A stretch of 64,000 bases of DNA from a virus: IMG/VR virus record IMGVR_UViG_3300023174_000001, positions 71,070-135,069 of that record, one strand, 5' to 3'. The notes under the pieces were generated by a model. That model had not been told where the DNA came from. It ran no database searches and saw nothing but the letters and a program-made list of their open reading frames with translations. Both the position numbers and the translations under genes were made by a program. Below, piece by piece: positions 1,981 to 53,400 of the stretch (position 1 is the first letter of the stretch; each line of letters opens with the position of its first letter).

Positions 1981-2208
1981 ATGATAAAACCTATGAGACA
2001 CATAGAACTGCACACAATTGAATCCTCTAAGGATGTCGCTACTGCTAACGAGGTTGGCCTGGAAGTGGCCGGGGCGGAAACTTGCGAGGAATGTTTCCAG
2101 CAAGTTGGCGAAAGTCCACTAAGCAAGAAGTTTGTCCCCTTTGTCTTTGCCCTAGATGATGAGGCAGAGTGGGTCGTCTGCTTCGAGTGTGCGTCTCCCA
2201 TCCTCTAG
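1981..2208 (+). CDS. Small putative Zn-binding protein
   Basis: CEEC and CFEC pairs. Confidence 0.65.
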   Translation: MIKPMRHIELHTIESSKDVATANEVGLEVAGAETCEECFQQVGESPLSKKFVPFVFALDDEAEWVVCFECASPIL

Positions 2209-2623
2209 CCCCCATCTAGCAACCAGGTTACCCTTTTTTCCATGCAAGTGGATTCCATGCTGACGCATGGAAAAAGAGGGGACCTGGTTTTTTGCTTCCT
2301 CCCGGCTTCTCATCAGAACTCCTTATGCTTTTCCGGGGGATACCCTGAAGATTTCGCTCACAGCGAACAAGATAATCTTGACATCCGGGAATGAATCTGG
2401 AATGATTGAGTTATAGATAGTATGAACCAAATAGAAACACCAGAAAAAAAGATTTCCAAAACCGGGAATAAATCTGGGAGAAGTTTAGTTCTACTTATTA
2501 CAACTGAATAAAAAGTCAAGGACACGCCAAAAAAAGTTTTTGAAATGAACTTGACAAGTGTAAGACCCTGTGCTTATACTTTCTAATACCAAATACAAAT
2601 GCGTCAATTACTAAGGAGACCAA

Positions 2624-3148
2624 GTGAACGCAAAGACAGAAAAGGACTGTGCTGGCAAGGCACTTTACCTAGAGTTCCGTAAAGAGAACTACACCTACCA
2701 AATGATTGCCACTCCACCTGCGATAGATGTGAATGGCAACTTCATCCCTGCGTGTGCTATGGAGAGAAGACTCTCTTCTTATCACCCACGCAAAAACTGG
2801 AACTTTACCAGCGTTCCTGTGAACGACTCATTCAAGATTGAGCGTGATGCTAGTGGCGATTTCTCACAGATAGATTTAACATCTGCTGGCGAGATTGGTG
2901 CTCTTCACATTCAGCGTTTGTTCGCTCGCACCATTGACTCTCTATTCCACAGAGGTTGGACTTTGTTCAAGACACCTGTGGCAGTAGAAGTAACTTACAA
3001 GGACTTGGCAACAATCAAGTCTGGTAAGACTTCCAATGACCTTATTAGACGCATCGAGCGTTCTCGTAAGCACTTTGGATTCCCAGAAGAACTCTTCGAC
3101 CAACCAGTCGTTGAGCCAACCACTGTCACACTGACACCAGTAGTCTAA
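2624..3148 (+). CDS. Hypothetical protein, first gene of the AAA/vWA cluster
   Basis: GTG start with AAGGAG RBS; promoter upstream. Confidence 0.8.
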   Translation: MNAKTEKDCAGKALYLEFRKENYTYQMIATPPAIDVNGNFIPACAMERRLSSYHPRKNWNFTSVPVNDSFKIERDASGDFSQIDLTSAGEIGALHIQRLFARTIDSLFHRGWTLFKTPVAVEVTYKDLATIKSGKTSNDLIRRIERSRKHFGFPEELFDQPVVEPTTVTLTPVV

Positions 3149-3164
3149 GAATAGGAGACCAATT

Positions 3165-4202
3165 ATGACTACAATCAACCCAACACAAACACCAACCCAG
3201 CAAGCAGTTGCTTGGACACGAGACCAAGTTAGATTGCACCCTAATCTGCCAGAACTACTAAACGCAGTCGTGGGTCAAACTCTAAACTCGGTTTCTGCAT
3301 CTGACCTTAACCTTGTATTTGACGAGACAACTGGTAAAGCAGTTATTCGTAATCGTGATGCAAATCCAGTTAGGAAAATTATGAACGCAGTCGATGCTCT
3401 CGCTGGCGAAAGTTTTTACCTGCGACCAAATGGTCACAAGTATTACACTCGCTCGTGGGGTCAGCACACTGATGTTGAAGTTGTTCGCAACCAAAGAGCC
3501 AGTGAGCGTGGAAAATCAATCCTGCTCTATGGTGCTCCGGGAACTGGCAAGACTGCTATGTTCGAGGGTGCGTTTGGTGACGACCTAATCACAGTTCTTG
3601 GAACTGGCGACACCGAAGTTGGCGACCTAGTTGGTGGCTATGTTCAAACTGTTGCTGGTGGATTCGAGTGGATTGATGGGCCGCTGGTTCAAGCAGCAGA
3701 GCAAGGTAAAGTTTTGCTCATTGACGAGATTGGTCTAATCGACCCTAAGGTCTTGTCTGTTGTTTATGGACTTATGGATGGTCGTAAAGAACTCAAAGTA
3801 ACTGCCAACCCTGAACGAGCAATCGTTAAGGCACAGCCGGGATTCTTTGTGGTTGCTGCGACTAACCCAAATGCTCCGGGAGTAAATCTTTCAGAGGCAC
3901 TTCTATCTCGCTTTGGTATTCAAGCAGAAATGACAACTGACTGGTCGCTTGCTCGTAAGTTAGGCGTTCCAGCACAAGCAGTAACTTGTGCACAGAACCT
4001 GTTCAAAAAGCAACAGTCTGACGAGGTCAACTGGTCTCCACAGATGCGTGAACTTTTGGACTTCCGTGACATCGCAGAAGACTTGGGAACTGAATGGGCT
4101 GTAAGCAATCTAATTGCTCAAGCACCATTCGAGGACAGAGCGATTGTCGCAGATGTATTTACTCGTGTCTTTGGCACAGAGTTCAAGCCAGCCAAAATCT
4201 AG
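3165..4202 (+). CDS. MoxR/CbbQ-type AAA+ ATPase
   Basis: Walker A GAPGTGKT, Walker B LLIDE, sensor-1 ATNP, LSEALLSRF, and the FEWIDGPL insert. Confidence 0.92.
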   Translation: MTTINPTQTPTQQAVAWTRDQVRLHPNLPELLNAVVGQTLNSVSASDLNLVFDETTGKAVIRNRDANPVRKIMNAVDALAGESFYLRPNGHKYYTRSWGQHTDVEVVRNQRASERGKSILLYGAPGTGKTAMFEGAFGDDLITVLGTGDTEVGDLVGGYVQTVAGGFEWIDGPLVQAAEQGKVLLIDEIGLIDPKVLSVVYGLMDGRKELKVTANPERAIVKAQPGFFVVAATNPNAPGVNLSEALLSRFGIQAEMTTDWSLARKLGVPAQAVTCAQNLFKKQQSDEVNWSPQMRELLDFRDIAEDLGTEWAVSNLIAQAPFEDRAIVADVFTRVFGTEFKPAKI

Positions 4203-4356
4203 GTCTCCCAAACAGAGATTTTGGCTAAAGGGGGGGAGTGGGTCGACAAAATCCCCACTCCCTCTACCCCAAAAAAAGTTTTGAAAAATAGGGAATAATA
4301 CTTGACTAATGTCAGTTATAACTTATACAATGTAGTTATTACACGAAAGGACTCAA

Positions 4357-6225
4357 ATGAGCCACTACAAATTAGATACTAAGCCAGTAGGTCGCACGCA
4401 CTATGACTGGCTAGGCGTTGGTGCTAGCGTTGGAAAACTGGTCAACCAGTGGTCGCTACGCAACGACCTAGTTGTTGGTCTGGTCGAAGAGACCACCATT
4501 GGTGCACCTGCTTGTTTCAACCCTGCTAGTGCCGAGATTGAAGTTTGCATCAGCAAAGCATTTGGCAATGGAACTACTGCCAAAGAAGTTGGCGAACTAA
4601 CTCAACGCAAGAACCAACTAAAGCACGCTGTTGCGACTGGTGCGATTTATCACGAGGCACTTCACGCTCGTGTTTCACGCTGGTCATTAGAGCAAGCATC
4701 CAAAGACCTAACTGCGAGAGAGTGGCGTTTCCTAAACTCTATGGAAGAGTCTCGTATCGAGTTCTGGGGTTGCAAGTATGTTCCACAGAACAGAACCCTA
4801 CTTCGTGCTTGTGCGATTGAGATTGTCATTGGCGACTTGGAATCACACATTGAAAATGTTTCTAAGGTTGATGCCGCTGCGAACCTTGCGTTGCTAACTT
4901 TGGCTCGTGTTGATGCTGGCGTTCTAGACGAGAGAGACATTGTTGACTCTGTTCAGAAAATCCTTACCGAAGTTTTGAGCGAAGAAGTTATTTCTAAGTT
5001 GCGTGCTATCTGGAAAGATTTCCAGAACCACCAAGACCACGCTAACGCTCTTCCACTTTACGACCTAACTCGTGAGTTCCTAAAAGTTCTAGACGAGCGT
5101 AAAGAAGAGACTGGCGAAGAAGAGGGTCAAGAACCAGAGGGCGAATGTGGCAAGCCGGGTGGAGAGCCGGGCACTGGAACTGGTAAGGGCGAACCTACAC
5201 CAGAACAGATTAAAGAGTTCAAGGACTTTATCGAAAAGGTCAAGGATGCTATCCAAGACATCAAAGAGCAGGTTCAGATTGCTAACCAGACTGAACTAGA
5301 CGATGAACTCGATGCAGAAGAACGCAAAGAAGAAGTCGAGGCTCGTGAGCAAAAAGCAAACCAGCAGAAAGAAAACAAGAAAGAATCTAAAAAGGTTTTT
5401 GACAACACCTCAACTGATTCTCACATCACCACTGCTGGAACTAAATCACGCTTAGTTGAATCTCGTAATCCAACTGGCGATGAAGTTGCTAGTGCTAATC
5501 GAATTGCTAACGCTCTGCGTAAAGCAAAGTATCGTGAGCGTTCACAGACTCGCATTGGTAGTGTTGTTCCACCGGGTCGCTTGCGTTCTCGTGCTGTCGT
5601 TCAAGGTCAAGCACAAAAGGCTCGTGGTATCTTCACACCAGTCGAGGCTTGGAGAACTACTAAGCGTAAGACCACAGAAGACCCTACGCTGAATGTTGGC
5701 ATTATGGTTGACATCTCTGGCTCTATGCGACCAGCAATGACACCAATGGCTATTACTGCTTGGGTTATGTCAGAGGCTGTTCACAGAGTTCAGGGCAAGT
5801 CAGCAATGGTCTACTATGGTCAGGATGTATTCGCACCACTTAAGCCGGGACAGCGTTTGACTAAGGTCAACACTTTCACAGCACCAGACTCTACCGAAGA
5901 GTTTGATAGAGCGTTCAAGGCTCTAGACGGTGGCTTGGGTATCACTCACGCTGACGGTGCTAAGTTGCTTGTGATTGTTTCTGACGGTCATTACCGACCT
6001 GACCAGAAAGCAAAAGCACGCAAGATGCTGAAAGAGGCTGACCGTAATGGCGTGGCTATTCTGTGGTTGACCTTTGACGGTAAAGTTGCTGAACCGACTG
6101 AACTGTTGAGCGGAACTGCTGGCAAGGTTGTATCACTGGCGAGCAACGAATCACCGACCAGAGCATCACAGGTTATCGGTGAGACCGCAGCCAAAGTTCT
6201 GTCGGCTATCGGTTCAAGGGTCTAA
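4357..6225 (+). CDS. CobT-like vWA protein with N-terminal HExxH metallopeptidase-like domain
   Basis: AIYHEALH...NSMEESRIE; acidic Gly-rich linker; MIDAS DISGS and LLVIVSDG. Confidence 0.88.
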   Translation: MSHYKLDTKPVGRTHYDWLGVGASVGKLVNQWSLRNDLVVGLVEETTIGAPACFNPASAEIEVCISKAFGNGTTAKEVGELTQRKNQLKHAVATGAIYHEALHARVSRWSLEQASKDLTAREWRFLNSMEESRIEFWGCKYVPQNRTLLRACAIEIVIGDLESHIENVSKVDAAANLALLTLARVDAGVLDERDIVDSVQKILTEVLSEEVISKLRAIWKDFQNHQDHANALPLYDLTREFLKVLDERKEETGEEEGQEPEGECGKPGGEPGTGTGKGEPTPEQIKEFKDFIEKVKDAIQDIKEQVQIANQTELDDELDAEERKEEVEAREQKANQQKENKKESKKVFDNTSTDSHITTAGTKSRLVESRNPTGDEVASANRIANALRKAKYRERSQTRIGSVVPPGRLRSRAVVQGQAQKARGIFTPVEAWRTTKRKTTEDPTLNVGIMVDISGSMRPAMTPMAITAWVMSEAVHRVQGKSAMVYYGQDVFAPLKPGQRLTKVNTFTAPDSTEEFDRAFKALDGGLGITHADGAKLLVIVSDGHYRPDQKAKARKMLKEADRNGVAILWLTFDGKVAEPTELLSGTAGKVVSLASNESPTRASQVIGETAAKVLSAIGSRV

Positions 6226-6354
6226 CGGCTCGTGTAGGGGTCGGCTTGCTAAACGGCAAGCCTATCCCTATAATAAATAACGGCAAGCCTAACGGCTCGC
6301 CTAAACGACAAAGAGACGGCAAGCGTAATGGCGTGCCAGATAAGGAGACTCACG

Positions 6355-6768
6355 GTGGGTCAGTATCACATTTTAGTAAACATAGATAAGCAGGAGTGGG
6401 TAGACCCTCACGGCTTAGGTCTAGGCTCAAAGCAATGGGAGAGTCAGGTTGGTTGCGAGGGTTCGCTATCAGACGCTATGTATGTCCTCACAATGACAAG
6501 CCCGGATAGTGGTGGTGGAGATTTACCACGCACAGACATTTCAGGTCGCTGGTGTGGAGATAGGGTTTTGATTGTAGGAGACTACACAGGGGCAGATGCA
6601 GTTCCAGGATTTACTGGGGCTGACGCTATCTACCAACTGGCTACGCAAAGTCCTGATTACAAGAACATAACTGGCGAAGTTCGTGAGGCGTTCTCCAAAA
6701 TCTTCGAGATTGCTTATGTCCAAGAGAACATTGGCAGTCATACATTCTGGAAGAGAACTCTGGTCTAG
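6355..6768 (+). CDS. Conserved hypothetical phage protein (MGQY..N.DK.E / GRW.GDR...GDY type)
   Basis: GTG start after TAAGGAG; recognisable motif set. Confidence 0.75.
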   Translation: MGQYHILVNIDKQEWVDPHGLGLGSKQWESQVGCEGSLSDAMYVLTMTSPDSGGGDLPRTDISGRWCGDRVLIVGDYTGADAVPGFTGADAIYQLATQSPDYKNITGEVREAFSKIFEIAYVQENIGSHTFWKRTLV

Positions 6769-6783
6769 CCTCTAAATAAAATA

Positions 6784-6811
6784 ATCCCCTGCGAGTCAGG
6801 GGATTTTTTAT
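6784..6811 (+). terminator. Rho-independent terminator; similar ones at ~10561, 11706, 12961, 14423, 15192, 16380, 17998, 20738, 23021, 25423
   Basis: ATCCCCTG-loop-CAGGGGAT followed by a T run; GC hairpin plus U tract after most cassettes. Confidence 0.8.
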
Positions 6812-7002
6812 GCTCGAAAAATAGGGTGTCCACTTTTTCCATGCAAGATGGTTTCCATGCTTCGCATGGAAAAACACAAGACCCTAGTGCTTCTTATGCT
6901 TTTTCTTCTCCCTCTGGGCTCATCTTCCTGTTCGCTAGGGGCGAACAAGAAACATTGACAATCAGGAATGAAATGCCATACGCTTAGGTTATAGTTAGAG
7001 TA

Positions 7003-7308
7003 ATGACAAAACGATTGGAGACCAAAATGGAATACTCAACCCTTTTCCCAACAGTAGTTCTAGTTGCTCGCTCTCAGGGCGAGCGTGGGCAGTATGGTGG
7101 CAGAAAGGCATACAAGATTTATGTAAGCAAGTTTTCAGATAATCGCTGGTGCGTGTTTATGTCTTGGGGCAAAGAAGAAATGCCTAACTCTTGGATGGGC
7201 AGTGAAAAGATTTTTGCCACAGAGCAGAGAGCAGTTCAGTTTGCTTGGGACAAGTTCTACGAGAAGATTGACAAAGGCTACACAGAACGAGTTTTTGAAA
7301 CTAATTAA
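7003..7308 (+). CDS. WGR-domain-like protein
   Basis: YKIYV..WCVFMSWGK....EKIFAT...A......EKIDKGY. Confidence 0.7.
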   Translation: MTKRLETKMEYSTLFPTVVLVARSQGERGQYGGRKAYKIYVSKFSDNRWCVFMSWGKEEMPNSWMGSEKIFATEQRAVQFAWDKFYEKIDKGYTERVFETN

Positions 7309-7388
7309 AAATAAACTTGACATTTGGGAATAAATCCTGAATAATCTAGTTATAGTTATTATAGAAGTTCTTTTGAAAGGAGAACAGA

Positions 7389-7622
7389 ATGGCTGAACGA
7401 TTCACCACTCAGGTAATAAAGGTAAGCACAGACGCAGACTACGCTATGTGGATTGCCGAAGATGGCTCTTATGGAATGTCCGACATACTCGTATTTAGAG
7501 AAGAAGACTTGGAAGACGAGCACTGGGAGATTTTCAATGAACTCGGAGACAACGAGAGATTTGAGTTCGTCAAAGCAGTAATAAACAAAGAAGACCTATC
7601 ACAATGGAAAGAGCAGGTATAA
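7389..7622 (+). CDS. Hypothetical acidic protein
   Basis: GAAAGGAG RBS; promoter upstream. Confidence 0.75.
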   Translation: MAERFTTQVIKVSTDADYAMWIAEDGSYGMSDILVFREEDLEDEHWEIFNELGDNERFEFVKAVINKEDLSQWKEQV

Positions 7623-7624
7623 AA

Positions 7625-7924
7625 ATGAACGAAGAGTTCAAGTGCCCTACTTGTAGTGGCTACATCCCTAACAACGATAACATTGGTGCTTACGCTGGTG
7701 CTATCTCTCGCAAAGACAACAAGACTGAAATCTGTTCCGCTTGTGGAATGGATGAGGCTCTTGCTGACTTCAAGCAACATCTCAGAAAAGAATCTGGTAT
7801 CGCTTGGCAGTCAACTGTTTTGGAAGAAATGGTTGAGCACCTAGACGACAACGAGATTTCATTACTCGTCAACGCTCTAAATGACGCAGTTGCCGAAATC
7901 TGTGAGTCATACGACATCAAGTAA
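7625..7924 (+). CDS. Zn-ribbon protein
   Basis: CPTC...GAISRKDNKTEICSACG..EA motif. Confidence 0.75.
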   Translation: MNEEFKCPTCSGYIPNNDNIGAYAGAISRKDNKTEICSACGMDEALADFKQHLRKESGIAWQSTVLEEMVEHLDDNEISLLVNALNDAVAEICESYDIK

Positions 7925-8016
7925 AAACTTAGGCGTGTTGGGCTTGACAAATGTCAGCCCAGCACCCTATACTAAATAAGTAATAATAAAAGTTCTCTTG
8001 AAAGGAGACCTGCCAA

Positions 8017-8424
8017 ATGGCAAACTACTACGAATCAGCACGCACCAACTACTTCTTGGTTAAGGACATTGACGCGTTCAAGAAAGAACTTGAAATGGTC
8101 AAGTCTCTTGAAGTGTGTGTCGAACACAAGAACCTGAAAGATTATGTCTGCTTGCTCGGTGACAGCGAGGGTGGATTTGCTTTCGACTACTATGACGACA
8201 GCCTAGAAGATTACATTGAAATCGACTGGGAGGGTATTTTCAAAAAGCACCTACAAGATGATTCAGTAGCAATCATTATGGGTGCTGGTTCAGAGAAACT
8301 CCGTTACATTCGTGGCTACGCCTATGCGTTCAACAACAAGGGTGAGACCAAGTTCCTCAGCCTAGACGACATCTACGAAATGGCTAAGCCTCTTGGCTCA
8401 GACATTCAGAAAGCAGAATACTAA
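8017..8424 (+). CDS. Conserved hypothetical phage protein
   Basis: MANY...RTNYF.VKD...GSEKLRY motifs; strong RBS. Confidence 0.8.
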   Translation: MANYYESARTNYFLVKDIDAFKKELEMVKSLEVCVEHKNLKDYVCLLGDSEGGFAFDYYDDSLEDYIEIDWEGIFKKHLQDDSVAIIMGAGSEKLRYIRGYAYAFNNKGETKFLSLDDIYEMAKPLGSDIQKAEY

Positions 8425-8425
8425 A

Positions 8426-8755
8426 ATGGAAACTAAAATCACTAAGCACACTTTCTATCCAGATGGAGAGAATGGCAACATCCCTGATGTTGAGTTAGTC
8501 AGCGTTCTAGGAGACGACAGAGACATGAGTGCTCACTTCCTATGGCGTGGCACTAAGCAATGGCTCGCTATGAGCAAGGACAACCCTTATGGCGATAACC
8601 AATGGCTAGTAGTCGAGACTGACTACTCCGAAGAGTTCCAAGAGTGGCTTGACGAAGAGTTGAGTGGCTATGACAGTTTGGAAACTATGTTTGGCACGAT
8701 AGATTTTCTGCCTAACGAGTCCTACCTATTTATTGTAGAAAGAGCAGGTGTCTAA
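8426..8755 (+). CDS. Hypothetical protein
   Basis: Tightly coupled to its neighbours. Confidence 0.7.
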   Translation: METKITKHTFYPDGENGNIPDVELVSVLGDDRDMSAHFLWRGTKQWLAMSKDNPYGDNQWLVVETDYSEEFQEWLDEELSGYDSLETMFGTIDFLPNESYLFIVERAGV

Positions 8756-8979
8756 TGACACAGGTAAGCAAAGCAATCGAGTATCTATCTAAGTTAGACC
8801 CTAACGAAGAAATAGCGTTTACTGGTTATTGGGTGAAGAGTGATGTTGAGGAAAACAACAACATCAAACTTACTGACGAACAGTGGGAGACGATTTGTTG
8901 GAAACACGAAGACAACATTGAAGTCCACATTGACGAAATAGTCGAGTTGGTTTTATCACAGGAGGAAACAAATGAGTAA
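8755..8979 (+). CDS. Hypothetical acidic protein
   Basis: TAATG coupling. Confidence 0.75.
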   Translation: MTQVSKAIEYLSKLDPNEEIAFTGYWVKSDVEENNNIKLTDEQWETICWKHEDNIEVHIDEIVELVLSQEETNE

Positions 8980-9175
8980 GCAAGTTTATTTCGTAGTTTA
9001 TTACGACACCGAAGATAAGCAACTTTACCAAGACACTGGGACTTTATTGGCTCGTTTTGGTGAGGGCTCTATCTGGGACAGCGAAGAAGAAGAGTGGAAT
9101 CATGAAACAGAAATCTCTGTCTTAGCAGAGGCTCAGAACGCAATGGACACTGTAATCAGTAATACAGCAGTCTAA
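8972..9175 (+). CDS. Hypothetical acidic protein
   Basis: AGGAGG RBS; overlap coupling. Confidence 0.75.
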   Translation: MSKQVYFVVYYDTEDKQLYQDTGTLLARFGEGSIWDSEEEEWNHETEISVLAEAQNAMDTVISNTAV

Positions 9176-9277
9176 GCATTGACAGCGAGAGCCACTTACC
9201 CTATACTTGTAGGGTAGGTGGCAATCGCCATTTCAAAAAAGAAGTAAAATGATTTAGAAAAGAAAGTTGGTAACTTT

Positions 9278-9544
9278 ATGAAAAAGTTCACAGTAATCGC
9301 AGAAATAAACTTCGAGGTTTATGACACTGACGAGTTTTCGGCTGAGCGTCAAGGGCGTATTGCCCTAGCACGATTCGTTGGAGACCCTGATGCAAATGGC
9401 TACAAAGACGAATACGCAGACTTGCCTACTCCGTCTATCCATCCAATCAGAGTTAGAGTCGCAGACGAGAATGGAAAGTTCTTGGCTGGCTGGAATCCAG
9501 CAGACTTAGACGAGGCTGAACCGAAAGAAAAAGACGCAGAGTAA
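9278..9544 (+). CDS. Hypothetical protein
   Basis: Downstream of the TTGACA-N17-TATACT promoter at 9179. Confidence 0.7.
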   Translation: MKKFTVIAEINFEVYDTDEFSAERQGRIALARFVGDPDANGYKDEYADLPTPSIHPIRVRVADENGKFLAGWNPADLDEAEPKEKDAE

Positions 9545-9573
9545 TCTGCCCCGAATAGAAAGACAAAAAGACA

Positions 9574-9858
9574 ATGAACCTAGCACAAGCACTCGGTCAC
9601 ACGATTAGAAAAAATCGTCTTGCCAATGGTATGACACTCAGAGACCTGAGCGTAAAGTCAAACACTTCACTTGGCTATCTATCTGAGATTGAAAGAGGAA
9701 CGAAAGAAGTTTCTTCCACAGTCTTGGAGAGTATTGCTAAGGGATTGGGAACACCTCTCTACACGATTGTCTCAGGCTCGGCTTTGGAGATGATGTATTC
9801 ATCTACCGAAATCATTGACGAACCCAGCAGACACATGGAAAACCTAGTAACCCTATAA
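9574..9858 (+). CDS. clgR: XRE-family HTH regulator, ClgR-like
   Basis: TLRDLS....SLGYLSEIERGTKEVSS..L..I...L..PL matches the ClgR recognition-helix region (SLGYLSE[IV]ERG.KE.SS). Confidence 0.75.
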   Translation: MNLAQALGHTIRKNRLANGMTLRDLSVKSNTSLGYLSEIERGTKEVSSTVLESIAKGLGTPLYTIVSGSALEMMYSSTEIIDEPSRHMENLVTL

Positions 9859-9878
9859 AAAGCATAAGAAAGACAAAG

Positions 9879-10016
9879 ATGAATACTTTAATGATGTTGT
9901 CAAACGAATCGACTGTTGATGTGAACCTACTCGCTGAGAGTCAGGAACTATTCGACCTAATCAAAAAGAACACCCCTTACAACGAACTTTTGGAGTGGGT
10001 GAACGAGAACTTCTAG
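9879..10016 (+). CDS. Small hypothetical protein (45 aa, below the ORF-track cutoff)
   Basis: MNTLMMLSNESTVDVNLLAESQELFDLIKKNTPYNELLEWVNENF. Confidence 0.6.
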   Translation: MNTLMMLSNESTVDVNLLAESQELFDLIKKNTPYNELLEWVNENF

Positions 10017-10167
10017 TTCTCTGTGGGCGAACAAAAAAGTTTGGCATTTCGGAATAAAATGTCGTTGTATCGTGTTATAGTTTATGTAGCAAGAAAAACG
10101 AAAGTTCCGATTGCTACCTCAGACCAAAAGGCTCTGGGAAATACATAAAGACGAAGGATGTGGCAAA

Positions 10168-10491
10168 GTGGCAAAAACACTTACCCCAACTGTAAAAGGC
10201 AAGTCAGTCGAACTAGGCTGGTCTGCCGAAGTTAGACAAGCGTTAGAGAAGTATCGTAACGCCCTAGAAGCGAAGAAGGAAGCAGACAAGGCTAAGGCTG
10301 AGGCTGAGGTCATTCTTCGTGAGCAACTCGGTGACGCTGAGTTCGCTACCATTGGTGGCTCAAAGGCATTCAAGATGTCTCAGGTCATTATGGAAAGAGT
10401 GGACAACGCAAAGTTGTTAGCCGAGTTCCCAGCAGTTCACGCAGAAGTTCTGGTTGACGGTTCTTACGAGTTCATCAAGACCGTAAACTAG
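10168..10491 (+). CDS. Coiled-coil protein resembling the C-terminal region of YqaJ-like phage proteins
   Basis: GTG start; AEVILREQLGDAEFATIGG...ERVDNAKLLAEFP. Confidence 0.6.
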   Translation: MAKTLTPTVKGKSVELGWSAEVRQALEKYRNALEAKKEADKAKAEAEVILREQLGDAEFATIGGSKAFKMSQVIMERVDNAKLLAEFPAVHAEVLVDGSYEFIKTVN

Positions 10492-10498
10492 AAACGGC

Positions 10499-10590
10499 TT
10501 GGCTAGCCGTATCACCTGATACCTTAGTGCCTAAGATACACGGCTAGTCAAAACGGCAAGCCCCTTAACCGATAACGGTTAGGGGGTTTT
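10499..10590 (+). ncRNA. Candidate antisense hairpin RNA (3' UTR of 10168-10491) followed by a terminator
   Basis: 12-bp stem 10499-10510/10540-10551; the loop contains ATCACCT-GATA-CCTTAGTGCCTA, the reverse complement of the shared leader TAGGCACTAAGG-AGGTGAT. Confidence 0.5.
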
Positions 10591-11226
10591 GCTTTACCCT
10601 AACGGCTAGCCCTGCACGGATAAGACGGCAAGCACAAACGGCAAGCCCCTATACGCAATGACGGCAAGCCTTATGCGTTCTTATGTAATAAGCCCCCGCA
10701 GAAGCCAACGGGTCGTCTTTTTTACGCTCTATGTATAGACGCACACAAAAACCTGACGGGTCGTGTTTTTAAGAAACAGAAGCAGAGGAGAAGCAGAAGC
10801 CAGATGACTGATGACACATGGGGGAAAAGCATAAGACCTTATGAAATAAAGCCAGATGGAAGCGAAGATGGAAGGGAGATGGAAGCGAAGGGGGAGAAGT
10901 AAAAGCATAAGAAAGCAAAGAACCAAGCAGATGAGATAGAAGACGCAAAAAAATGTGGGTGTAAAGATTTTCCTTGCGAGCCTCAGATTTTTTGTCCATG
11001 CCTCGCATGGAAAAACAAGGGACTTGACTTTTTTTGGATTTTGTTTTTTTTGTTTTCTTTTTTTTATTTTGGATTTGGATTTGGATTTTTATTTCTCTTA
11101 TGTTTTTAATCTTGATTTGTTCCCAGTTATCGTGTTCGCCCTGAGCAAACAAAAAAGATTGGCACTAGGGAATAAAAACCTTGCTTATCGTGTTATCTTA
11201 TGTATAGGCACTAAGGAGGTGATTTT

Positions 11227-11382
11227 ATGAAGTGTAAAGTTTGGTTAGTCGTCAAGTATGACAACTCTATTCCTGCGACCTGCGTGGAGTTTGAGTGGGC
11301 AGATTTGGCTGTTGCGACTGCTTTTGTTCAATGGTTCAACCTGAACAATAGCGACAGACACGCCTCAATAGAGGCAGAGTAG
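11227..11382 (+). CDS. Small hypothetical protein (51 aa)
   Basis: ATG directly after the AAGGAGGTGA RBS; MKCKVWLVVKYDNSIP... Confidence 0.7.
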   Translation: MKCKVWLVVKYDNSIPATCVEFEWADLAVATAFVQWFNLNNSDRHASIEAE

Positions 11383-11457
11383 TCCTGAGACCTGAGCAAG
11401 TCCTAAAAAGGCTCACACACACATTTCCTGGGTCCAGGAAACTACATAGGAGACAAA

Positions 11458-11697
11458 GTGAAAAGAAAACTAGAACTGGAAGTCAAAACTGTTGATACCA
11501 TTTTGGACATTTTAGGTGGATTGCTTCACGCTGGGATGGAGATGGAAAAGTTTTTGGAAAATGAAGGGCAACCTGTTCCTAAAAAACTTAGAAAACAAAA
11601 TGCTAGAACTTTGATGGCTCACATGGAACTGGCAATGGCACTTCGTTCAGTTGAGATTGCTGAACTGGAAGAAGTGTTCGCTCTCGAACAAAACTAA
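11458..11697 (+). CDS. Hypothetical protein
   Basis: GTG start with GGAG RBS; terminator follows. Confidence 0.7.
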   Translation: MKRKLELEVKTVDTILDILGGLLHAGMEMEKFLENEGQPVPKKLRKQNARTLMAHMELAMALRSVEIAELEEVFALEQN

Positions 11698-11980
11698 ATA
11701 AAAAGATTCCACCTCGAAAGAGGTGGGATTTTTTTATCAAAAAAATAGGGTTAGAGGTTTTTCCATGCGTTCCATGAGTCCATGCCTCGCATGGAAAAAG
11801 CGACCACCTGGCTTCGCCCGGCTTCGCCCGGCTTCGCTTGCTTCTTCTGGTTCTTATGCTTTATCTGGCTGATGAGTTCTCCCTCCCTGTTCGCTGTGAG
11901 CAAACAAGAAAGTTTGCTGTATGGGAAGAAAAAGGGACTGTATTGGGTTATTATTTGTATAGGCACTAAGGAGGTGAAAA

Positions 11981-12349
11981 ATGGAAAACTTACAGACAAC
12001 AGAGGTGACGCTTACAAGCGACTGCACTTGCGTTGATGAGGATGGCAACTACATTGAAGAATGTTTTGGTTGCTGGGATGACTCTAAGTATGACTTAGGG
12101 GAGTTAGTATCAACTGTTCAGACTGAAAAAGGCTGGACTCAGGTTGCTGTCGAATACAAGGGAGTTTCATGGCGTAGAGTTTCTGGCGAGTTCTTTATGG
12201 ACTTCGATACCGAAAACTTGATTCGAGCATTCTCCCTCAATGGTGACTTCAGATTGGTATTTACCTATACCAATGGAGAGTTATCACTTGTTCGATACTC
12301 GCATGATGAGCCAACTGGGACTGGCAAGATTATCTTCAAGGCAATCTAG
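11981..12349 (+). CDS. Hypothetical protein with Cys cluster and SHDEPTG motif
   Basis: Strong RBS; CTC...ECFGCW; YSHDEPTG. Confidence 0.8.
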   Translation: MENLQTTEVTLTSDCTCVDEDGNYIEECFGCWDDSKYDLGELVSTVQTEKGWTQVAVEYKGVSWRRVSGEFFMDFDTENLIRAFSLNGDFRLVFTYTNGELSLVRYSHDEPTGTGKIIFKAI

Positions 12350-20731: not shown

Positions 20732-20870
20732 AGGAACTCCCCGTCAGAAATGGCGGGGATTTTCTTTTACCGATAGACCTGGGTGGCAGGTTTTTCCTTT
20801 CAGGAATGTGCTTGACAACGGGAATATTTTGCTATAACTTATAGTTATTACACATGACGAAAGGCTTCAA

Positions 20871-23239: not shown

Positions 23240-23312
23240 TAAAGACCCCCTTGACTTATTTATCAACATTTGATAGCATAAGGATATGGAAACAATGACG
23301 AAAGGACAGAAT

Positions 23313-24281
23313 ATGTCTAAAAAACTAACTGTCGCATATAGCGACGACTACCTAAATTGGAAACTAGGTTCAGGTGATGGCAATCACCCTACAAAGCCTA
23401 TCCGAGCAAAGATTGCTACCGACCATCTGGTTGAGGAACTTGGTGCGGACAATGTAGAAATCATTGAGCCTGAGTTCAGAGATGGAGACAGAGCCAAGAT
23501 TGAATCTATCCACGACCCCGTTTATGTGTCTCAGGTAATTGATGATGGAATATCTTTTGACTGGACTGAACAGAGGCCAGAGATGGGGCACACCGCTGCT
23601 CAGATGTTCTCAGGTACAGTACGCCTAGTCGAGAAGATGCTGGCTGGTGAAACTCAGGTTGGTTTCAATCCTCAAGGTGCTAAGCATCACGCACAAGAGG
23701 GTTGGAGCGAAGGCTTCTGTGTATTCAATGACCACGCTTGGGCTGCCAAAGAGTTCGTAAAGAATGGGCTCAAGGTTGTGTATATCGACTGGGATGTGAA
23801 TGCTGGAGATGGTGTTCAGAATTTGCTTGCGGACACTGACATTCCAACTTTCAGTATCCACGGACACGGAATCTATCCAACTCACTCAGACACTTGGCTC
23901 AAAGAAGCAGGTACAAGTGATAACTATGTTTACCAAAATGATGAGCAACACTGGTACAACTACTGCTTACAGCGAGACCAAGGCGACGAGGCTTTCAAGT
24001 GGGCTATTGATGAGATTGCCAAGAAGGTTGCCGAGTACAAGCCTGATGTCATTCTGCTAGCAACTGGAGCAGATGGGCACGAAGGCGAACACTGGGGCCT
24101 AAAGTACACATATGATGGCTACCACTATGCCGCTGGAGTGATTGCTGACCTAGCAAACAAGTATTCGGATGGTCGTGTACTCATTGGTGGTGCGGGTGGG
24201 TATCAACCATTCACACATACACCGAGAGTATGGGCCAATGTGGTCAAAGATATCTATCAGCAGACTCAGAAATCTGAGTAG
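23313..24281 (+). CDS. Histone deacetylase/AcuC-family Zn-dependent deacylase
   Basis: HP..P.R, IHDPVYV, GAKHHA, GFCVFND, YIDWDVNAGDGVQ, SIHG, GADGH, GAGGY. Confidence 0.92.
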   Translation: MSKKLTVAYSDDYLNWKLGSGDGNHPTKPIRAKIATDHLVEELGADNVEIIEPEFRDGDRAKIESIHDPVYVSQVIDDGISFDWTEQRPEMGHTAAQMFSGTVRLVEKMLAGETQVGFNPQGAKHHAQEGWSEGFCVFNDHAWAAKEFVKNGLKVVYIDWDVNAGDGVQNLLADTDIPTFSIHGHGIYPTHSDTWLKEAGTSDNYVYQNDEQHWYNYCLQRDQGDEAFKWAIDEIAKKVAEYKPDVILLATGADGHEGEHWGLKYTYDGYHYAAGVIADLANKYSDGRVLIGGAGGYQPFTHTPRVWANVVKDIYQQTQKSE

Positions 24282-24713: not shown

Positions 24714-24867
24714 TTTAGCCTGGGTTGCCATTTTTTCATTGTAAATGATAAGAAATGGCAATTCCACCAGTAGCAAACACTACTTGCGTAGTTTTGCATA
24801 CCGATATAGCCTTTTATTAGGGACAATCGCCCACTTGGGGCCAAATAATAGAAAGAAAAATGACACA

Positions 24868-25416
24868 ATGAGTAAAATCAAAAAAGCAAACCAGAGTTTG
24901 CCACCCAATATAAAGTGGATGCTGGAAGATTCAATGAGTTCTGCGGATAGAGATAATCTAATTCGTTCACTGAACTTGATTGGTTGGACACAGAGTAGCA
25001 TTGCTCGCTCGCTAGATATAACCAGAGAGCGTGTTCGTCAGATATGCGTATCACCGATGGACTCGTCTGCTAGGACAGAGTTCAGACTGCCACTACCACC
25101 ACAGCACATAGTAAAAGAGAAGCGTGAGTTCATTGAGCCTAACCCAGAGATACTGGCTCGCTTGCTTGAACTACAGCCACTAGCACAGCAGGTTCGCTCT
25201 AATGCTATGCGGTTTAGAGCAGAGGCAGAAGAGTACAGTGCTCTAGTCGCTAAACTACACAATGAAGATGGAGTTACGCTATACCGATTGGCTCTTCGCC
25301 TAGGAGTAACTCACTCAGCATTGAGATTTAGATTGGCTCGCTATGGATACAAGACATCAGACAAAGGTGCTAGCAAAGTCTATACACCAATCAAATCCAA
25401 TAACCGAATTCGCTAA
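24868..25416 (+). CDS. Double-HTH DNA-binding protein (paralog of 28852-29376)
   Basis: GWTQSSIARSLDITRERVRQI and GVTLYRLALRLGVTHSALRFRL. Confidence 0.8.
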   Translation: MSKIKKANQSLPPNIKWMLEDSMSSADRDNLIRSLNLIGWTQSSIARSLDITRERVRQICVSPMDSSARTEFRLPLPPQHIVKEKREFIEPNPEILARLLELQPLAQQVRSNAMRFRAEAEEYSALVAKLHNEDGVTLYRLALRLGVTHSALRFRLARYGYKTSDKGASKVYTPIKSNNRIR

Positions 25417-27385: not shown

Positions 27386-27973
27386 TTAGTTTCTCCACTT
27401 CCAGAGTGCTACCTTGTCTTCGTTGAGACCAAGTAGATAATCTACAAAGTGTTTATTACATAAGACTGCTTCTGAACGCTTCTCACGCATTACGGTGATT
27501 GCTTGTTCAGGTGAGTAGCCTTCACGGATGAGCACAAGTGCCATCACAATACCACTGCGATTGAGACCTGCTTGGCATCTGATTAGCACACGCTTACCAG
27601 ACTTCCAATCCTTGTGAGCCATCTTTACTATATCTTCTAGTTCAGTCTCTGGGTTGAAGTCTCCCATAGCACTGTCATAGAAACCTAGTCGTACTTCTTT
27701 GACAAACCAATCAACAGGTTCAGCATCTGCGTAGAGAGTGAATACAGAATCAAAGTGCTTTGGTGTTATCTTAGTGCCGATGGTAGTCGCTTGGTCAAAC
27801 CATTCTTGGTCAGCCCATCTATCTAGAGTCCCACCTTGCCATAGGTTAGGTACGGTCTCAGTCCATAGTTGATGTGGCAACACTGGATATACGGGTCGTC
27901 TTAGTTCTTCTAGACTTTGAGCAGTTATGTCCAAGCGTTCATTGACATTTGTTATTTTCTTAGGTAATGTCAT
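27386..27973 (-). CDS. Dual-specificity / tyrosine phosphatase
   Basis: VLIRCQAGLNRSG (CX5R); PNLWQGG; EQAI...R.KR. Confidence 0.9.
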   Translation of the reverse strand: MTLPKKITNVNERLDITAQSLEELRRPVYPVLPHQLWTETVPNLWQGGTLDRWADQEWFDQATTIGTKITPKHFDSVFTLYADAEPVDWFVKEVRLGFYDSAMGDFNPETELEDIVKMAHKDWKSGKRVLIRCQAGLNRSGIVMALVLIREGYSPEQAITVMREKRSEAVLCNKHFVDYLLGLNEDKVALWKWRN

Positions 27974-50400: not shown

Positions 50401-53400
50401 TAGAGGAGTTTCTGCTCCAGAGATTATTAACCAAGTAGTTGGGCCTAACCAGCGTCTATTCTCTCGTCAGCAGATGGATGACATTATCGAGCGTCTTGAG
50501 GCTAACCGTCTATATCCTGGTGTGAATGTTATTCCTTATGTATCTAAGGACAACAAGACCATTGTTCGTGTTGGAGACCGTGTAACTCACTATGACGCAT
50601 TCGGTCAGCCAAAACTGATGGCTAACGGTCAACCTAGAACTGGTACTGTAACTGAACGCAGACCATACACGCTAAACATGAAACCAAATGGTGAGTATGA
50701 ATACACCGACCAAGTTTATGTACAGTGGGATGACACACCAAGACCGCATCAGGCTGCTCCACGCCGTTTAGAAGTAAACAGAAGAGCAGATGGAAGTGAC
50801 CCAGTTCCAGCGGTACAAAATGCCAACGAAGAAGGCACACCTCCTTACATTGAAACCATGCCATTACAACCAAAGCGTGTTGTCCCTAGACCAGTTGCCC
50901 GCAGACCAGTAGCACCCCCTCCTGCTGACTCACAAGACATTGCAAATATTGGAAATGTAAGAATCCTAGTAGTTCCTAACGGACCTACATATAGTGTTGA
51001 CCGTGGAGATGAGTACACTCAGTTCCAAGATGTAACCGACGCTGGAAACTACTCTGGTATTTATGTAATAAAGGTTAGCAACGGCGGTAAATGGCTTGTG
51101 AAAGAGAGAGATGGAGTCGATGTACAAGTTCTAGCCGAGTTTGATGACAGAAATCAAGCCGAAGCACACGCTATGGACCTCATCAATCAAAATGGTGGAA
51201 GGCAGACTCAGGAGAGGCTAGAGACTAGGGCCGATGCTCCTATCGCTGAAAGAGGGACACTTATCAATGCCAACAATGTTGGTGAATTTGAAAGAGTAGT
51301 AGACCCTAGCGGAATGGGTCACACTATTCTGCGTGGTGCCAATATGACTAGGTTTGACAAAGACCAAGGCGATGGAATACCTAATGCTATTTATGTCCAG
51401 CAAAGAGACGATGGCAAGTGGCATGTCATCCAACAAATGCCAGACGGAAATGGTGGATACGACACTAGAAGTGTTGCTATCAACGATGACAGAAATTTGA
51501 TGGAAGCAGTTGCTACAAATATCGTTGCTGGCAATACTACTGCCGAAGCCTACATGCAAATGTGGGGAAATCCAAACCAGCCAAACGCTCCAGAAAACAA
51601 CGATAGTGCCATCACCCCATTGATAGAGCGATTCAACGCTAATAGAATGCCATTTGGTTTCTCTCTTGTTAGAGGTGCTGATTTAGGTGGAGAATTTGGT
51701 ACCAACATAATGCTTAAGGATACTCAAGCGGATGCTGCTGGTCTAAACTCCATAAAAGGTCGTATCACTCAAAACGAAAACGGTAATTATGTAGTTCAAA
51801 AGTGGGGCGGTAACGGCGGATTTGTAGGCAGAGAAGAATATCCAGGTATTATGACTGCTCTAGAAGTTCTTAGTATGCACGCTCTGTCTGTAAGACTTGA
51901 AAGAGATGGAAATAACTCTCCAGAATCTAGTAAGCCTTCGTCTAGCCCATCTTCTCCTAATGGCGGAGATGGCGGTGGAGTTCCACCTACCAACCCACCT
52001 GCTGGTGGAGATGGCGGAGCATCAGATGGTCCGGGACTAGACTTGAATATGGGTAGATGGAGACAAGGCCAGCCACCTCAGGGAGTCGGCCGCGTTGACG
52101 GTGTAGTTCCAAAGGTAAACACATTCTGGGATGATGACCAGCCACCTACTCGGTACGATGTTGTCAGAGATGAAAACCGTACCAAGTTTATTGGTCGTGC
52201 TGGAGACAACCCTGGTGCAGAAGCGTTTGTTTATGTTGAAAAAACTCCGCTCGGCAACTGGAGAATGGTTGACCCTAGAGAAAGAGGCGATGCTAGATAC
52301 AGTGCCGAGTATGGTGACCGTAATGTCGCAGAAGCAATTGCTATCAACAAGATGGCTGGTCGTGAAGACCTAAACCAAGAAGTTCTTGGTCAGCCTGACT
52401 CGAATGTTGCTCCTGCTCCTCAGACGCTACCTAACGGTATAGTCGAAAGTCGTAGCGAATCTATGACTCTATATGTTAACCGAGATGGTAATCTCAATGA
52501 AATTCAGGTAGTCGCTCTTGGTGGCGGAAAGGCTTGGCAAGTAAATAGAAATGTGCCTGGCCAAGCCACAGAAGGATTGTCATACCACGGGACCCGTGAG
52601 GATGCTGAAAGAGAGGCTAGAGAAAGAATTGCTCAAGAAAATGCTCCTGCCAACAATGCTCCAGCGGGACCTGCTGCCACAGACAGCGAATCCCCTACTA
52701 GCGGAAAATCTGACTCTGGACTGAGACTTGGCGAGTTCCGTGCTCCAGACGGAATGATTGAAGAGATGAATGCCGACGGAACCTACTCTACCGATTTCCG
52801 CATTGGCGACAAAACTTTCCAAAGAGTTAGAACTCCAAGTAGTGCTTCTTATTACTACAACGGTTTTGAAATTGCTACTACTGAAAAGAATTCAGATGGA
52901 ACTTTCAATGTAAAAACCATTTGGGCAAAAGATGCTAGCGATTTTGTAGTAGCAAGAGATGAAGAAAATGCATTACTAAATGCTCAGTCTCAAATTTGGG
53001 CAGCAACTCAAGACGGCAGAGTTAGCAAAATAGATGGTGACCAAGGCCCTAGCGATGGTGGCAACCCACCTGCTGGACCTTCGGGTGGAGATGATGGTAA
53101 CGGTGGTAACGGCGGAAACGGTGGAACCCCACCTACCAATAATCCGCCAGCGGGACCTGCTCCAGCAGCACCTACTCCAAGCCAGCCAAGCAGACAGCCT
53201 CGCACAAGAAAGCCTGTTGTAAATGAAGTTCAACCTGGCGATAGATATGTTAGATACAACTCAAGGCGTAACGATAAGCCTGGAGGCGAAAGAACTCACT
53301 GGGATATCTACGATAAAAGAACTGGCAAGGTAATTGCTAGGGCAACTGAAAAAGAAGTAGCGGATGACATTGCTGCTGGAGTTAGGGACAAGAATGGAAA

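Follow-up and report, generated by a model that had tools for sequence, protein, structure and literature searches.

The closest described relatives of the system reported here are the ClgR regulators of Corynebacterium glutamicum, Mycobacterium tuberculosis, Mycobacterium smegmatis and Streptomyces lividans (structures 3f51, 3f52 and 5woq; family NF041677). The published operator of C. glutamicum ClgR is WNNWMGCYNNNRGCGWWS, which is also present before clpP1P2 and clpC1 of M. tuberculosis (PMC2905415); the operator core is given as CGC-N5-GCG (PMC3613350) and the Streptomyces form as GTTCGC-5N-GCG (PMC9775585). Known ClgR proteins activate from upstream sites (PMC3613350, PMC2905415), and upstream of M. 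tuberculosis clpP1P2 a mutation of CGC to AAA reduced promoter activity 3.4-fold (PMC3613350). In Streptomyces ClgR, a review names the final two alanines as the likely recognition site for ClpP-dependent degradation, and their replacement by aspartate raised the level of the protein (PMC9775585). Here we analyse a window of 64,000 nucleotides that forms the end of a virus record 135,069 bp in length; the record has direct terminal repeats and is rated complete (IMGVR_UViG_3300023174_000001). In this window the gene for a ClgR-like protein lies among five palindromic boxes resembling ClgR operators, each followed by a promoter of the type read by the sigma factor SigH (SigR in Streptomyces).

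The phage protein and cellular ClgR have the same five-helix XRE fold and are alike in the segment LGYLSE.ERG.KE.SS (invariant across the viral family and common to ClgR), in the predicted dimer and in an upstream operator of the type (GTT)CGC-N5-GCG(AAC). They differ in that the phage gene is virus-borne, and its product scores well below the ClgR family cut-off, falls outside the cellular clade and has no Ala-Ala end. The candidate targets are also different, being phage genes of unknown function and not clp or lon, and the phage has five near-symmetric operators within 10 kb.

The promoters are to be compared with those of SigH in Corynebacterium and Mycobacterium and of SigR in Streptomyces. 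The SigH consensus is GGGAATA-16 nt-YGTT, with GGAAT-N18-19-GTT as an exclusively SigH-specific class (PMC3489674, PMC10012870). A T at −31 marks the C. glutamicum class read by SigH alone, and trxB1, whose −35 element is GGAATAA, is an example of a strong SigH-specific promoter (PMC10012870). The phage promoters agree exactly with the published form in the −35 GGGAATA, in a gap of 16 nt before YGTT and in having T at −31, but their −10 element runs on as GTTAT(A) and not GTTGAA; they are phage-borne, and their use by SigH is predicted.

Host-derived transcription factors of the WhiB and Lsr2 types are known in actinobacteriophages (PMC8612146), and these are likewise members of regulator families typical of actinobacterial cells that are carried by phages. 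The present case differs in that the operators and the promoter class are readable in the phage genome itself; the words ClgR, XRE and sigma are absent from the main text of that survey. The second-best structural and sequence relatives of the phage protein are the restriction-modification controller (C) proteins, such as C.Esp1396I, which score 15–16 bits below ClgR. C proteins are small XRE dimers that act on palindromic boxes beside a promoter; no restriction or methylase domain was found among the neighbouring open reading frames (ORFs) scanned. The individual parts, namely ClgR, its operator, SigH promoters and host-type regulators in phages, are already known. A limited literature search, partly at title level, found no case of a phage that encodes a ClgR-like regulator and carries operators for it in front of SigH-type promoters, in agreement with the preliminary description of this DNA, whose author knew of no such phage regulon.

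Boxes, promoters and the ClgR-like protein

The features of the locus are as follows.

9574–9858, + strand: open frame for a ClgR-like XRE helix-turn-helix (HTH) protein of 94 amino acids ending NLVTL, assigned from profile, structure and fold matches
2352–2368, + strand: box 1, TTTCGCTCACAGCGAAC, reading TTTCGC...GCGAAC
2388–2412, + strand: promoter 1, SigH-type, GGAAT-N17-GTT with the −35 octamer GGGAATGA
6930–6946, + strand: box 2, GTTCGCTAGGGGCGAAC, a perfect arm pair
6965–6990, + strand: promoter 2, SigH-type, AGGAATGA-N-GTTAT
10016–10032, + strand: box 3, GTTCTCTGTGGGCGAAC, reading GTTCTC...GCGAAC, immediately after the stop of ORF 9879–10016
10051–10076, + strand: promoter 3, SigH-type, CGGAATAA-N-GTTAT, ahead of ORF 10111–10491
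11134–11150, + strand: box 4, GTTCGCCCTGAGCAAAC
11169–11194, + strand: promoter 4, SigH-type, GGGAATAA-N-GTTAT, ahead of ORF 11227–11382, with the leader GTATAGGCACTAAGGAGGTG
11889–11905, + strand: box 5, GTTCGCTGTGAGCAAAC
11924–11949, + strand: promoter 5, SigH-type, GGGAAGAA-N-GTTAT, ahead of ORF 11981–12349, with the same leader as promoter 4

The preliminary description listed five GTTCGC-N5-GCRAAC palindromes. All five sites are real and end where it placed them, but the literal pattern holds in only three (starting at 6930, 11134 and 11889; 0.00 expected from 100 shuffles). With the pattern TTCGC-N5-GCRAAC and at most 1 mismatch, 11 strand-matches are found against 1.42 expected, a number reached in 0 of 100 shuffles; they comprise the five sites on both strands and one extra match at 11912. 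A search of the 135,069-bp genome as a whole for GTTCGC-N5-GCGAAC, allowing up to 2 mismatches, returns these five sites only (10 strand-matches). All five boxes share one orientation, and each lies in an intergenic gap ahead of a + strand gene.

Comparison with the 18-mer ClgR consensus gives 0 mismatches for boxes 1 and 2 and 1 mismatch for each of boxes 3–5. Box 1 together with the preceding A matches the C. glutamicum consensus perfectly, and box 2 fits it perfectly on both strands. Among 21 boxes from five phages, a T follows the first CGC in 20 and a purine precedes the second GC in all 21, exactly what the ClgR consensus requires at those two positions. The assignment of the boxes to the ClgR operator type is therefore borne out at the level of sequence by a fit to the published consensus with 0–1 mismatch, and they are predicted ClgR-type binding sites.

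The GTT of the promoter starts at 2410, 6988, 10074, 11192 and 11947, that is, 42 nt past the box end in all five modules. In the module of box 1 the promoter spacer is 17 nt and the gap from box to GGAA 19 nt, while in the others both are 18 nt; because the −35 element of box 1 is shifted one base toward the GTT, the box-to-GTT distance alone is constant in the window. The five 131-nt regions align without gaps, with a mean column identity of 67%, and each shows the same order of box, A-rich stretch with a TTGACA-like hexamer, GGAAT, 17–18 nt and GTTAT. A −35 GGAAT and a −10 GTT separated by 17–19 nt, the spacing of SigH/SigR promoters, are present at 5/5 boxed promoters. The pattern GGGAAK-N18-GTTA has 9 matches in the window where 0.21 are expected, and all 9 are on the + strand; about 16 SigH-type promoters lie within 18.5 kb, the unboxed ones between 2465 and 20821. 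In motif and spacing the promoters equal the published consensus, so that the SigH/SigR type proposed earlier holds at the sequence level.

The protein encoded at 9574–9858 finds ClgR as its best NCBIfam family (63.9 bits, E 1.3e-17), with the runner-up family at 43.6 bits. The best PDB sequences are also ClgR (3f51 of C. glutamicum and 5woq, from M. smegmatis by its entry title; 48.2 and 47 bits), followed by C proteins at 32.3 bits. Its AlphaFold model, with a predicted local distance difference test score (pLDDT) of 85.9, has five helices and a disordered tail at residues 82–94, and in the Foldseek search the top 11 rows are ClgR chains (query template-modelling score, TMq, 0.72–0.82). The best PHROG match reaches 36.4 bits, the matched families being 'transcriptional regulator/repressor', and the HTH-aligned segment is near-identical to ClgR. 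A clustering with generic XRE repressors, which would have spoken against the earlier proposal, is not seen in these scores, ClgR being ahead in NCBIfam, the PDB, PHROGs and Foldseek.

The claim of a ClgR homologue stands insofar as ClgR is the nearest family, but orthology does not: the score of 63.9 bits lies below the ClgR equivalog cut-off of 170 bits. The viral relatives score 68.7–78.6 bits on the same profile, and the cellular orthologues of Planktophila, Aquiluna and Microbacterium, which are low-GC freshwater lineages, reach 101.7–114.1 bits and are also below the cut-off. In a tree of 57 viral and 80 cellular sequences with 3 outgroups, all 80 cellular sequences and 2 viral ones form one clade (Shimodaira–Hasegawa-like approximate likelihood-ratio test, SH-aLRT, 90), and the window protein stands outside it in a weakly resolved viral grade. 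The tree was built from 97 alignment columns by a quick search, its rooting depends on three outgroup branches of great length, and no direction of transfer is read from it. By these comparisons the protein is best described as a divergent viral relative of ClgR, not an orthologue.

Modelled as a homodimer, the protein scored 0.50 against 0.00 for the best of 3 controls; the dimer mark is reached by 20 of 30 proteins solved as same-chain pairs and by 1 of 23 solved as single chains. The dimer runs agree in at least 91% of contacts, with a partner pLDDT of at least 79. A predicted dimer therefore suits a palindromic site; the pass may reflect only likeness to the solved ClgR structures. The protein ends NLVTL, without Ala-Ala, as first described, and so do without it 56 of its 57 viral relatives, the exception being on a contig of 70% GC; a C-terminal AA is found in 36 of 80 cellular ClgR proteins. 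The tail-less state may make the phage protein stable.

A second perfect 6-N5-6 palindrome, GAGAAC-TTCTA-GTTCTC, was observed at 10005–10021, its right arm being the left arm of box 3, so that the stretch 10005–10032 holds three half-sites in 11-nt steps from a palindrome pair sharing an arm. This stretch is conserved in the related loci L005, L010, L120 and L122 and doubles as the 3' end of ORF 9879–10016. The ClgR consensus of C. glutamicum is matched perfectly a third time (AATAAGCCCAAGGCGAAC) at record positions 52448–52465, 18.6 kb before the window; it precedes a small basic ORF, and no GGAAT-N18-GTT follows it. The leader GTATAGGCACTAAGGAGGTG follows the promoters of boxes 4 and 5 (11199–11218 and 11954–11973) and three unboxed promoters (near 14250, 14640 and 14915).

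Related phages and the clpP1P2 promoter of likely hosts

With the protein as query, 7 IMG/VR loci were found, and with a 17-member family alignment 67 loci (L005–L011, L120–L179). The members of this viral family are 76–127 amino acids long and lie mostly on contigs of 41–51% GC, some of them 125–154 kb in length. Nine of 50,697 deposited phage records match the family at all, none of them with an identity above 50%; megablast of window positions 2000–12000 against 50,697 phage records gave zero matches.

Boxes with at most 1 mismatch occur in 12 of the 67 loci, namely ten loci of the near clade, in which the regulator is 48–100% identical, and L131 and L134. In the near clade the boxes are at syntenic places, one of them immediately after the regulator gene. 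In the window and four related phages (regulator 52–88% identical), the two half-sites are pairwise 95% and 98% identical, whereas the box spacer is 64% and the flanks 52% and 61% identical; selection therefore acts on the half-sites. At 17 orthologous sites in the relatives, the distance from box to GTT is 42 nt at nine, 43 nt at three and 37, 53 and 54 nt at one each, and two sites have no recognisable promoter, so that 42 or 43 nt is found at 12 of the 15 sites having one. The fixed distance of 42 nt claimed at the outset is thus a property of the window and varies in related phages.

The gene and the boxes are both present in G006, G007, L006 and L120–L122. The Actinomycetia phage DSL-LC01, which shares gene order with the window phage, has no regulator homologue at E≤1e-3, no box at ≤1 mismatch and, over the 70 kb read, no array of such promoters. 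Regulator and boxes therefore go together in related phages and are both absent from DSL-LC01; gene, boxes and promoter type are here counted as one contrast, not many.

A different arrangement was observed at L150, L152 and L153, where 2–3 tandem copies of GCTCGCTTA(T/G)GGCGAGC stand 6 nt apart, followed by TTGACA, about 3.5 kb downstream of the ClgR-like gene of each locus. These repeats may be the operator array of a different ClgR-like clade.

The virus is identified as a phage of actinobacteria, with an unusually low GC content (38–49% in the window), because its portal is 69.5% identical to that of DSL-LC01 and the other portal matches, 876 records, come mostly from phages of Mycobacterium (496), Gordonia (198) and Microbacterium (131). 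An actinobacterial host, as had been supposed, is borne out by these matches. Part of the stretch was found in 20 of 24 listed sequencing runs (13 studies), three of the rows being possibly the source itself; the runs holding 0.46–0.87 of its words, drawn from several studies, are metagenomes of lake, freshwater, aquatic or pond origin. Taken with the GC content and this habitat, the clpP1P2 parallel set out below makes Nanopelagicales the likely host. Two RNA libraries contain contigs on the ClgR-like gene (9749–9975 with 2 differences; 9570–9992 at about 92%) and on other parts; the contigs show neither starts nor strand and may be DNA carry-over, and no inference was drawn from them or from stretches that they leave uncovered.

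Among cellular proteins, the 80 best matches to the viral family all come from actinobacteria, and in four candidate genomes a box ending GCGAAC lies ahead of the first clpP gene. Of 31 genomes from the order of a Planktophila genome, 30 gave a clpP1 locus (L111, L185–L213), and in all 30 of these Nanopelagicales loci xxxxGC-N5-GCGAAC and then GGGAAG-N18-GTT stand ahead of clpP1P2. The promoter reads GGGAAGCATTT...TTGTTA(A/G)GGTC and is of SigH type. Likely hosts therefore share the box-plus-promoter layout, and the phage modules resemble the clpP1P2 promoter of 'Ca. Nanopelagicales' (acI) in the order and orientation of their elements (box ending GCGAAC, then GGGAAG-N18-GTTA). The host boxes differ in that the right arm is invariant but the left arm degenerate, the phage boxes being more symmetric; in that one composite site was identified in the host and five in the phage; and in the box-to-GTT distance, usually 57–58 nt. 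The bases between box and GGAA number 33 in 22 genomes, 34 in 5, and 19, 24 and 28 in one each; in the genome with the 19-nt gap (clpP locus of 43% GC), the GTT lies 43 nt past the box end, compared with 42 in the phage.

The strict promoter pattern occurs 2–11 times per host genome, 159 times in total against 94 in the reversed control, a modest excess. A loose composite (GCGAAC, 15–36 nt, GGAA-N18-20-GTT) shows no enrichment over the control in five Nanopelagicales genomes, and the only identified composite match in the host stands at clpP1P2. Upstream of cellular clgR genes, GGAA-N17-19-GTT is present within 350 nt in 68 of 80, a descriptive count with no control. A sigH-rshA-like pair with an upstream GGAAT-N18-GTT was found in 2 of the 3 candidate actinobacterial genomes having a zf-HC2 match, and no such pair in two incomplete Planktophila genomes.

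How the boxes may act

We hold with moderate confidence that a dimer of the phage ClgR-like protein activates the five SigH-type promoters, which would be read by host RNA polymerase with a host SigH-like sigma factor. The protein would bind the five boxes as a dimer, and the bound dimer, centred near −62, would help the polymerase to start at these promoters; a host extracytoplasmic function (ECF) sigma factor resembling SigH would recognise them. The arrangement as a whole would copy that of the host clpP1P2 promoter. Host ClgR could probably use the phage boxes too, because the recognition helix of the phage protein is nearly that of cellular ClgR.

A host sigma factor is proposed because the phage encodes no recognisable one. 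Six-frame searches of all 135 kb with Sigma70_r2 and Sigma70_r4_2 gave no match at E≤1, and TIGR02937 (13.7 bits) and Sigma70_r4 (about 25–26 bits) matched, over 21–33 positions, a single ORF of 223 amino acids (24745–25416, + strand). Residues 80–100 of this ORF match Sigma70_r4 (just over the cut-off), HTH_23 and HTH_3, and it has no region 2. The large terminase gene follows about 500 nt downstream, and the ORF more likely encodes a DNA-binding protein or one resembling a small terminase than a sigma factor.

Activation is favoured because the box is clear of the −35 element, because ClgR is a known activator and because the −35 octamers of the boxed promoters are poorer. Taking the fifth base of GGAAT as −31 (numbering of PMC10012870), box 2 occupies −70 to −54, with its centre at −62. 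The boxes stop 18–19 nt short of the −35 element and leave both promoter elements free. A position clear of the polymerase-binding elements, near −62, is where many activators sit. The perfect −35 octamer GGGAATAA is present in 1 of 5 boxed promoters and in 7 of 10 unboxed pattern matches, the remaining unboxed matches being one with one mismatch and two that resemble chance. The poorer −35 of boxed promoters recurs in related phages, where the sites are orthologous and the trend is descriptive.

The regulator may also reinforce its own synthesis. Promoter 2 heads about ten + strand ORFs from 7003 to 10016, the ClgR-like gene among them, and no + strand terminator-like site was found between these positions; because the regulator gene belongs to the unit that box 2 heads and stands directly before box 3, activation there would amount to positive feedback. 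The first synthesis might start from the following site.

9179–9207, + strand: sigma-70-like site TTGACA-17-TATACT, 11/12 matches to the consensus

This site lies upstream of ORF 9278–9544 and the ClgR-like gene and is a possible box-independent start for the regulator; as a class, sigma-70-like sites (TTGACA-17/18-TATACT, 11/12 matches) are no commoner than in shuffles.

A further regularity of the promoters concerns the TTGACA-like hexamers (TTGACA, TTGGCA), which stand 3–4 nt upstream of GGAAT in many of the promoters, whether boxed or not.

2378–2383, 6956–6961, 7317–7322, 10042–10047, 11160–11165 and 20811–20816 of the window: TTGACA-like hexamers

Their position relative to GGAAT is kept in relatives in which the box distance has changed (L120, L122). 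As a sigma-70 −35 element common to these promoters the hexamer was rejected, being too far from GTTAT(AGT) and having a plausible −10 at 17–18 nt in only 2 of 5 boxed promoters.

Several observations weigh against the proposed activation. The low ClgR score and the position of the protein outside the cellular clade make it conceivable that its DNA specificity has drifted. The contrast in −35 quality comes from few promoters and non-independent relatives and is descriptive, and ten or eleven promoters of the same type stand without a box. A strict face-of-helix rule does not apply, because the distance varies in relatives (37–54 nt) and in hosts, where it is usually 57–58 nt and not 42. In five candidate host genomes the full palindrome with ≤1 mismatch gives 21 forward matches against 32 in the control-forward search; it is unenriched, and the symmetric box of the phage therefore cannot find host ClgR regulons. 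Nor is the core palindrome enriched near distant ClgR-like genes, TCGC-N5-GCGA having 33 sites around those of the 57 more distant viral loci against 11, 27, 21 and 31 in four controls. The proposal explains neither the TTGACA-like hexamer nor how SigH would be freed from its anti-sigma factor in infection, and a divergent phage sigma factor or polymerase-redirecting factor is conceivable.

That the phage goes beyond copying parts and takes over the SigH-ClgR proteotoxic-stress circuit of the host, we consider doubtful as a whole. In such a takeover the tail-less, probably Clp-resistant protein would be a stabilised mimic that drives the five units and also acts on host clpP1P2; alternatively, the five near-perfect boxes would draw host ClgR off the clpP1P2 promoter. 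The roughly 16 SigH-type promoters would outnumber those of a streamlined host and so capture its stress sigma factor; strict matches number 9 in 17 kb of phage DNA compared with 2–11 (raw) per host genome of 1.2–2.2 Mb.

Among the explanations that compete with activation by the phage protein, repression survives best, though it is unlikely. The phage protein would then switch the five units off following an initial burst, or stop read-through coming from the preceding unit. Small XRE proteins of phages are mostly repressors, the PHROG matches are to regulator/repressor families, and C proteins, the next-best structural relatives, both activate and repress; read-through would arrive at box 2, after a terminator-like hairpin, and at box 3, after a stop codon. 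Repression is hard to reconcile with boxes that overlap no promoter element, with a single site per promoter and no tandem operators, with weaker −35 octamers at the boxed promoters, and with the upstream activation known for ClgR (PMC3613350, PMC2905415). The arrangement is not that of a CI/Cro-type switch either, the boxes being single and off the promoter elements and all genes lying on one strand (an integrase was not searched for).

Next in standing, and rather improbable, is that the promoters are read by an unrecognised phage sigma factor or polymerase-redirecting factor, with the box protein as co-activator of a phage-run middle class. This would fit DSL-LC01, where array and boxes are both missing so that the promoter type is clade-specific, as well as the −10 part GTTATAGT, which also includes a TANNNT hexamer, and the 21-residue Sigma70_r4 match of the 223-amino-acid ORF. 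That match was, however, all that the six-frame searches of 135 kb (Sigma70_r2, r4_2, r4 and TIGR02937) produced; moreover, the motif and spacing equal the published SigH consensus (PMC3489674, PMC10012870) and host clpP1P2 is preceded by the same promoter type.

We consider it improbable that host ClgR alone uses the boxes, the five units firing with the host proteotoxic response while the phage protein has its task elsewhere, perhaps at host clp promoters or at the GAGAAC-N5-GTTCTC palindrome. The boxes do fit the cellular consensus, the clpP1P2 promoters of the hosts share the layout, the viral protein falls outside the cellular clade, and the second palindrome, which relatives have kept, has one arm in common with box 3. 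Host use alone does not account for the joint presence and joint absence of boxes and phage gene in the compared phages, for an HTH-aligned segment near-identical to that of ClgR, or for phage boxes more symmetric than the clpP boxes of the hosts, whose left arm is degenerate.

That the five modules are merely copies of one duplicated 65-nt segment, their distance a matter of shared descent, would suit the gap-free alignment with 67% mean column identity but is very improbable, since conservation is concentrated in half-sites and promoter elements and not module-wide, sites are kept at syntenic places where the flanks have diverged to about 50–60%, and every site is in an intergenic gap before a + strand gene.

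Neighbouring genes and possible consequences for infection

The remaining features of the window are the following.

2465: unboxed promoter, downstream of promoter 1
2551: sigma-70-like site, downstream of promoter 1
2624–3148, 3165–4202 (AAA_5 ATPase) and 4357–6225: unit after box 1
6783–6805, + strand: terminator-like hairpin with T run, closing the upstream transcription unit shortly before box 2
23286–24281, + strand: histone-deacetylase-domain protein (Pfam E 1.6e-45)
27386–27973, − strand: dual-specificity phosphatase domain protein (E 1.9e-10)

Scans of 18 neighbouring ORFs against Pfam and PHROG gave the AAA_5 ATPase, a RecE-like fragment and phrog_2945 (function unknown); most ORFs have no family, and matches to WGR and DUF956 are weak, below the Pfam cut-offs. 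The earlier term accessory for the genes behind the boxes is therefore tentative. No clp or lon gene was found behind a box in the window. The product of 4357–6225 is a protein of 622 amino acids whose DSL-LC01 counterpart is annotated 'cobalamin biosynthesis protein', and with the AAA_5 ATPase it forms a CobS/CobT-like pair. The deacetylase and the phosphatase are unusual cargo beside packaging genes.

The ClgR-type box followed by a SigH-type promoter before clpP1P2, seen in 30/30 Nanopelagicales loci, is newly noted here and may be useful in its own right. The viral ClgR-like family is wide (67 IMG/VR loci), yet it is missing from cultured phage records, none of which reaches 60% identity. 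The DNA targets of phage-borne regulators of host type can rarely be read from sequence; the present case allows this for the regulator and its operators, for the class of promoter and for the host promoter that they resemble, which gives a concrete and testable wiring diagram. If the proposed activation is true, the virus builds part of its timing programme from a protein-quality-control switch of its host, which raises the question of whether infection alters Clp proteolysis in acI-type freshwater actinobacteria. If the takeover of the stress circuit were also true, infection would reset both the Clp proteolysis and the stress response of a very abundant freshwater bacterium.

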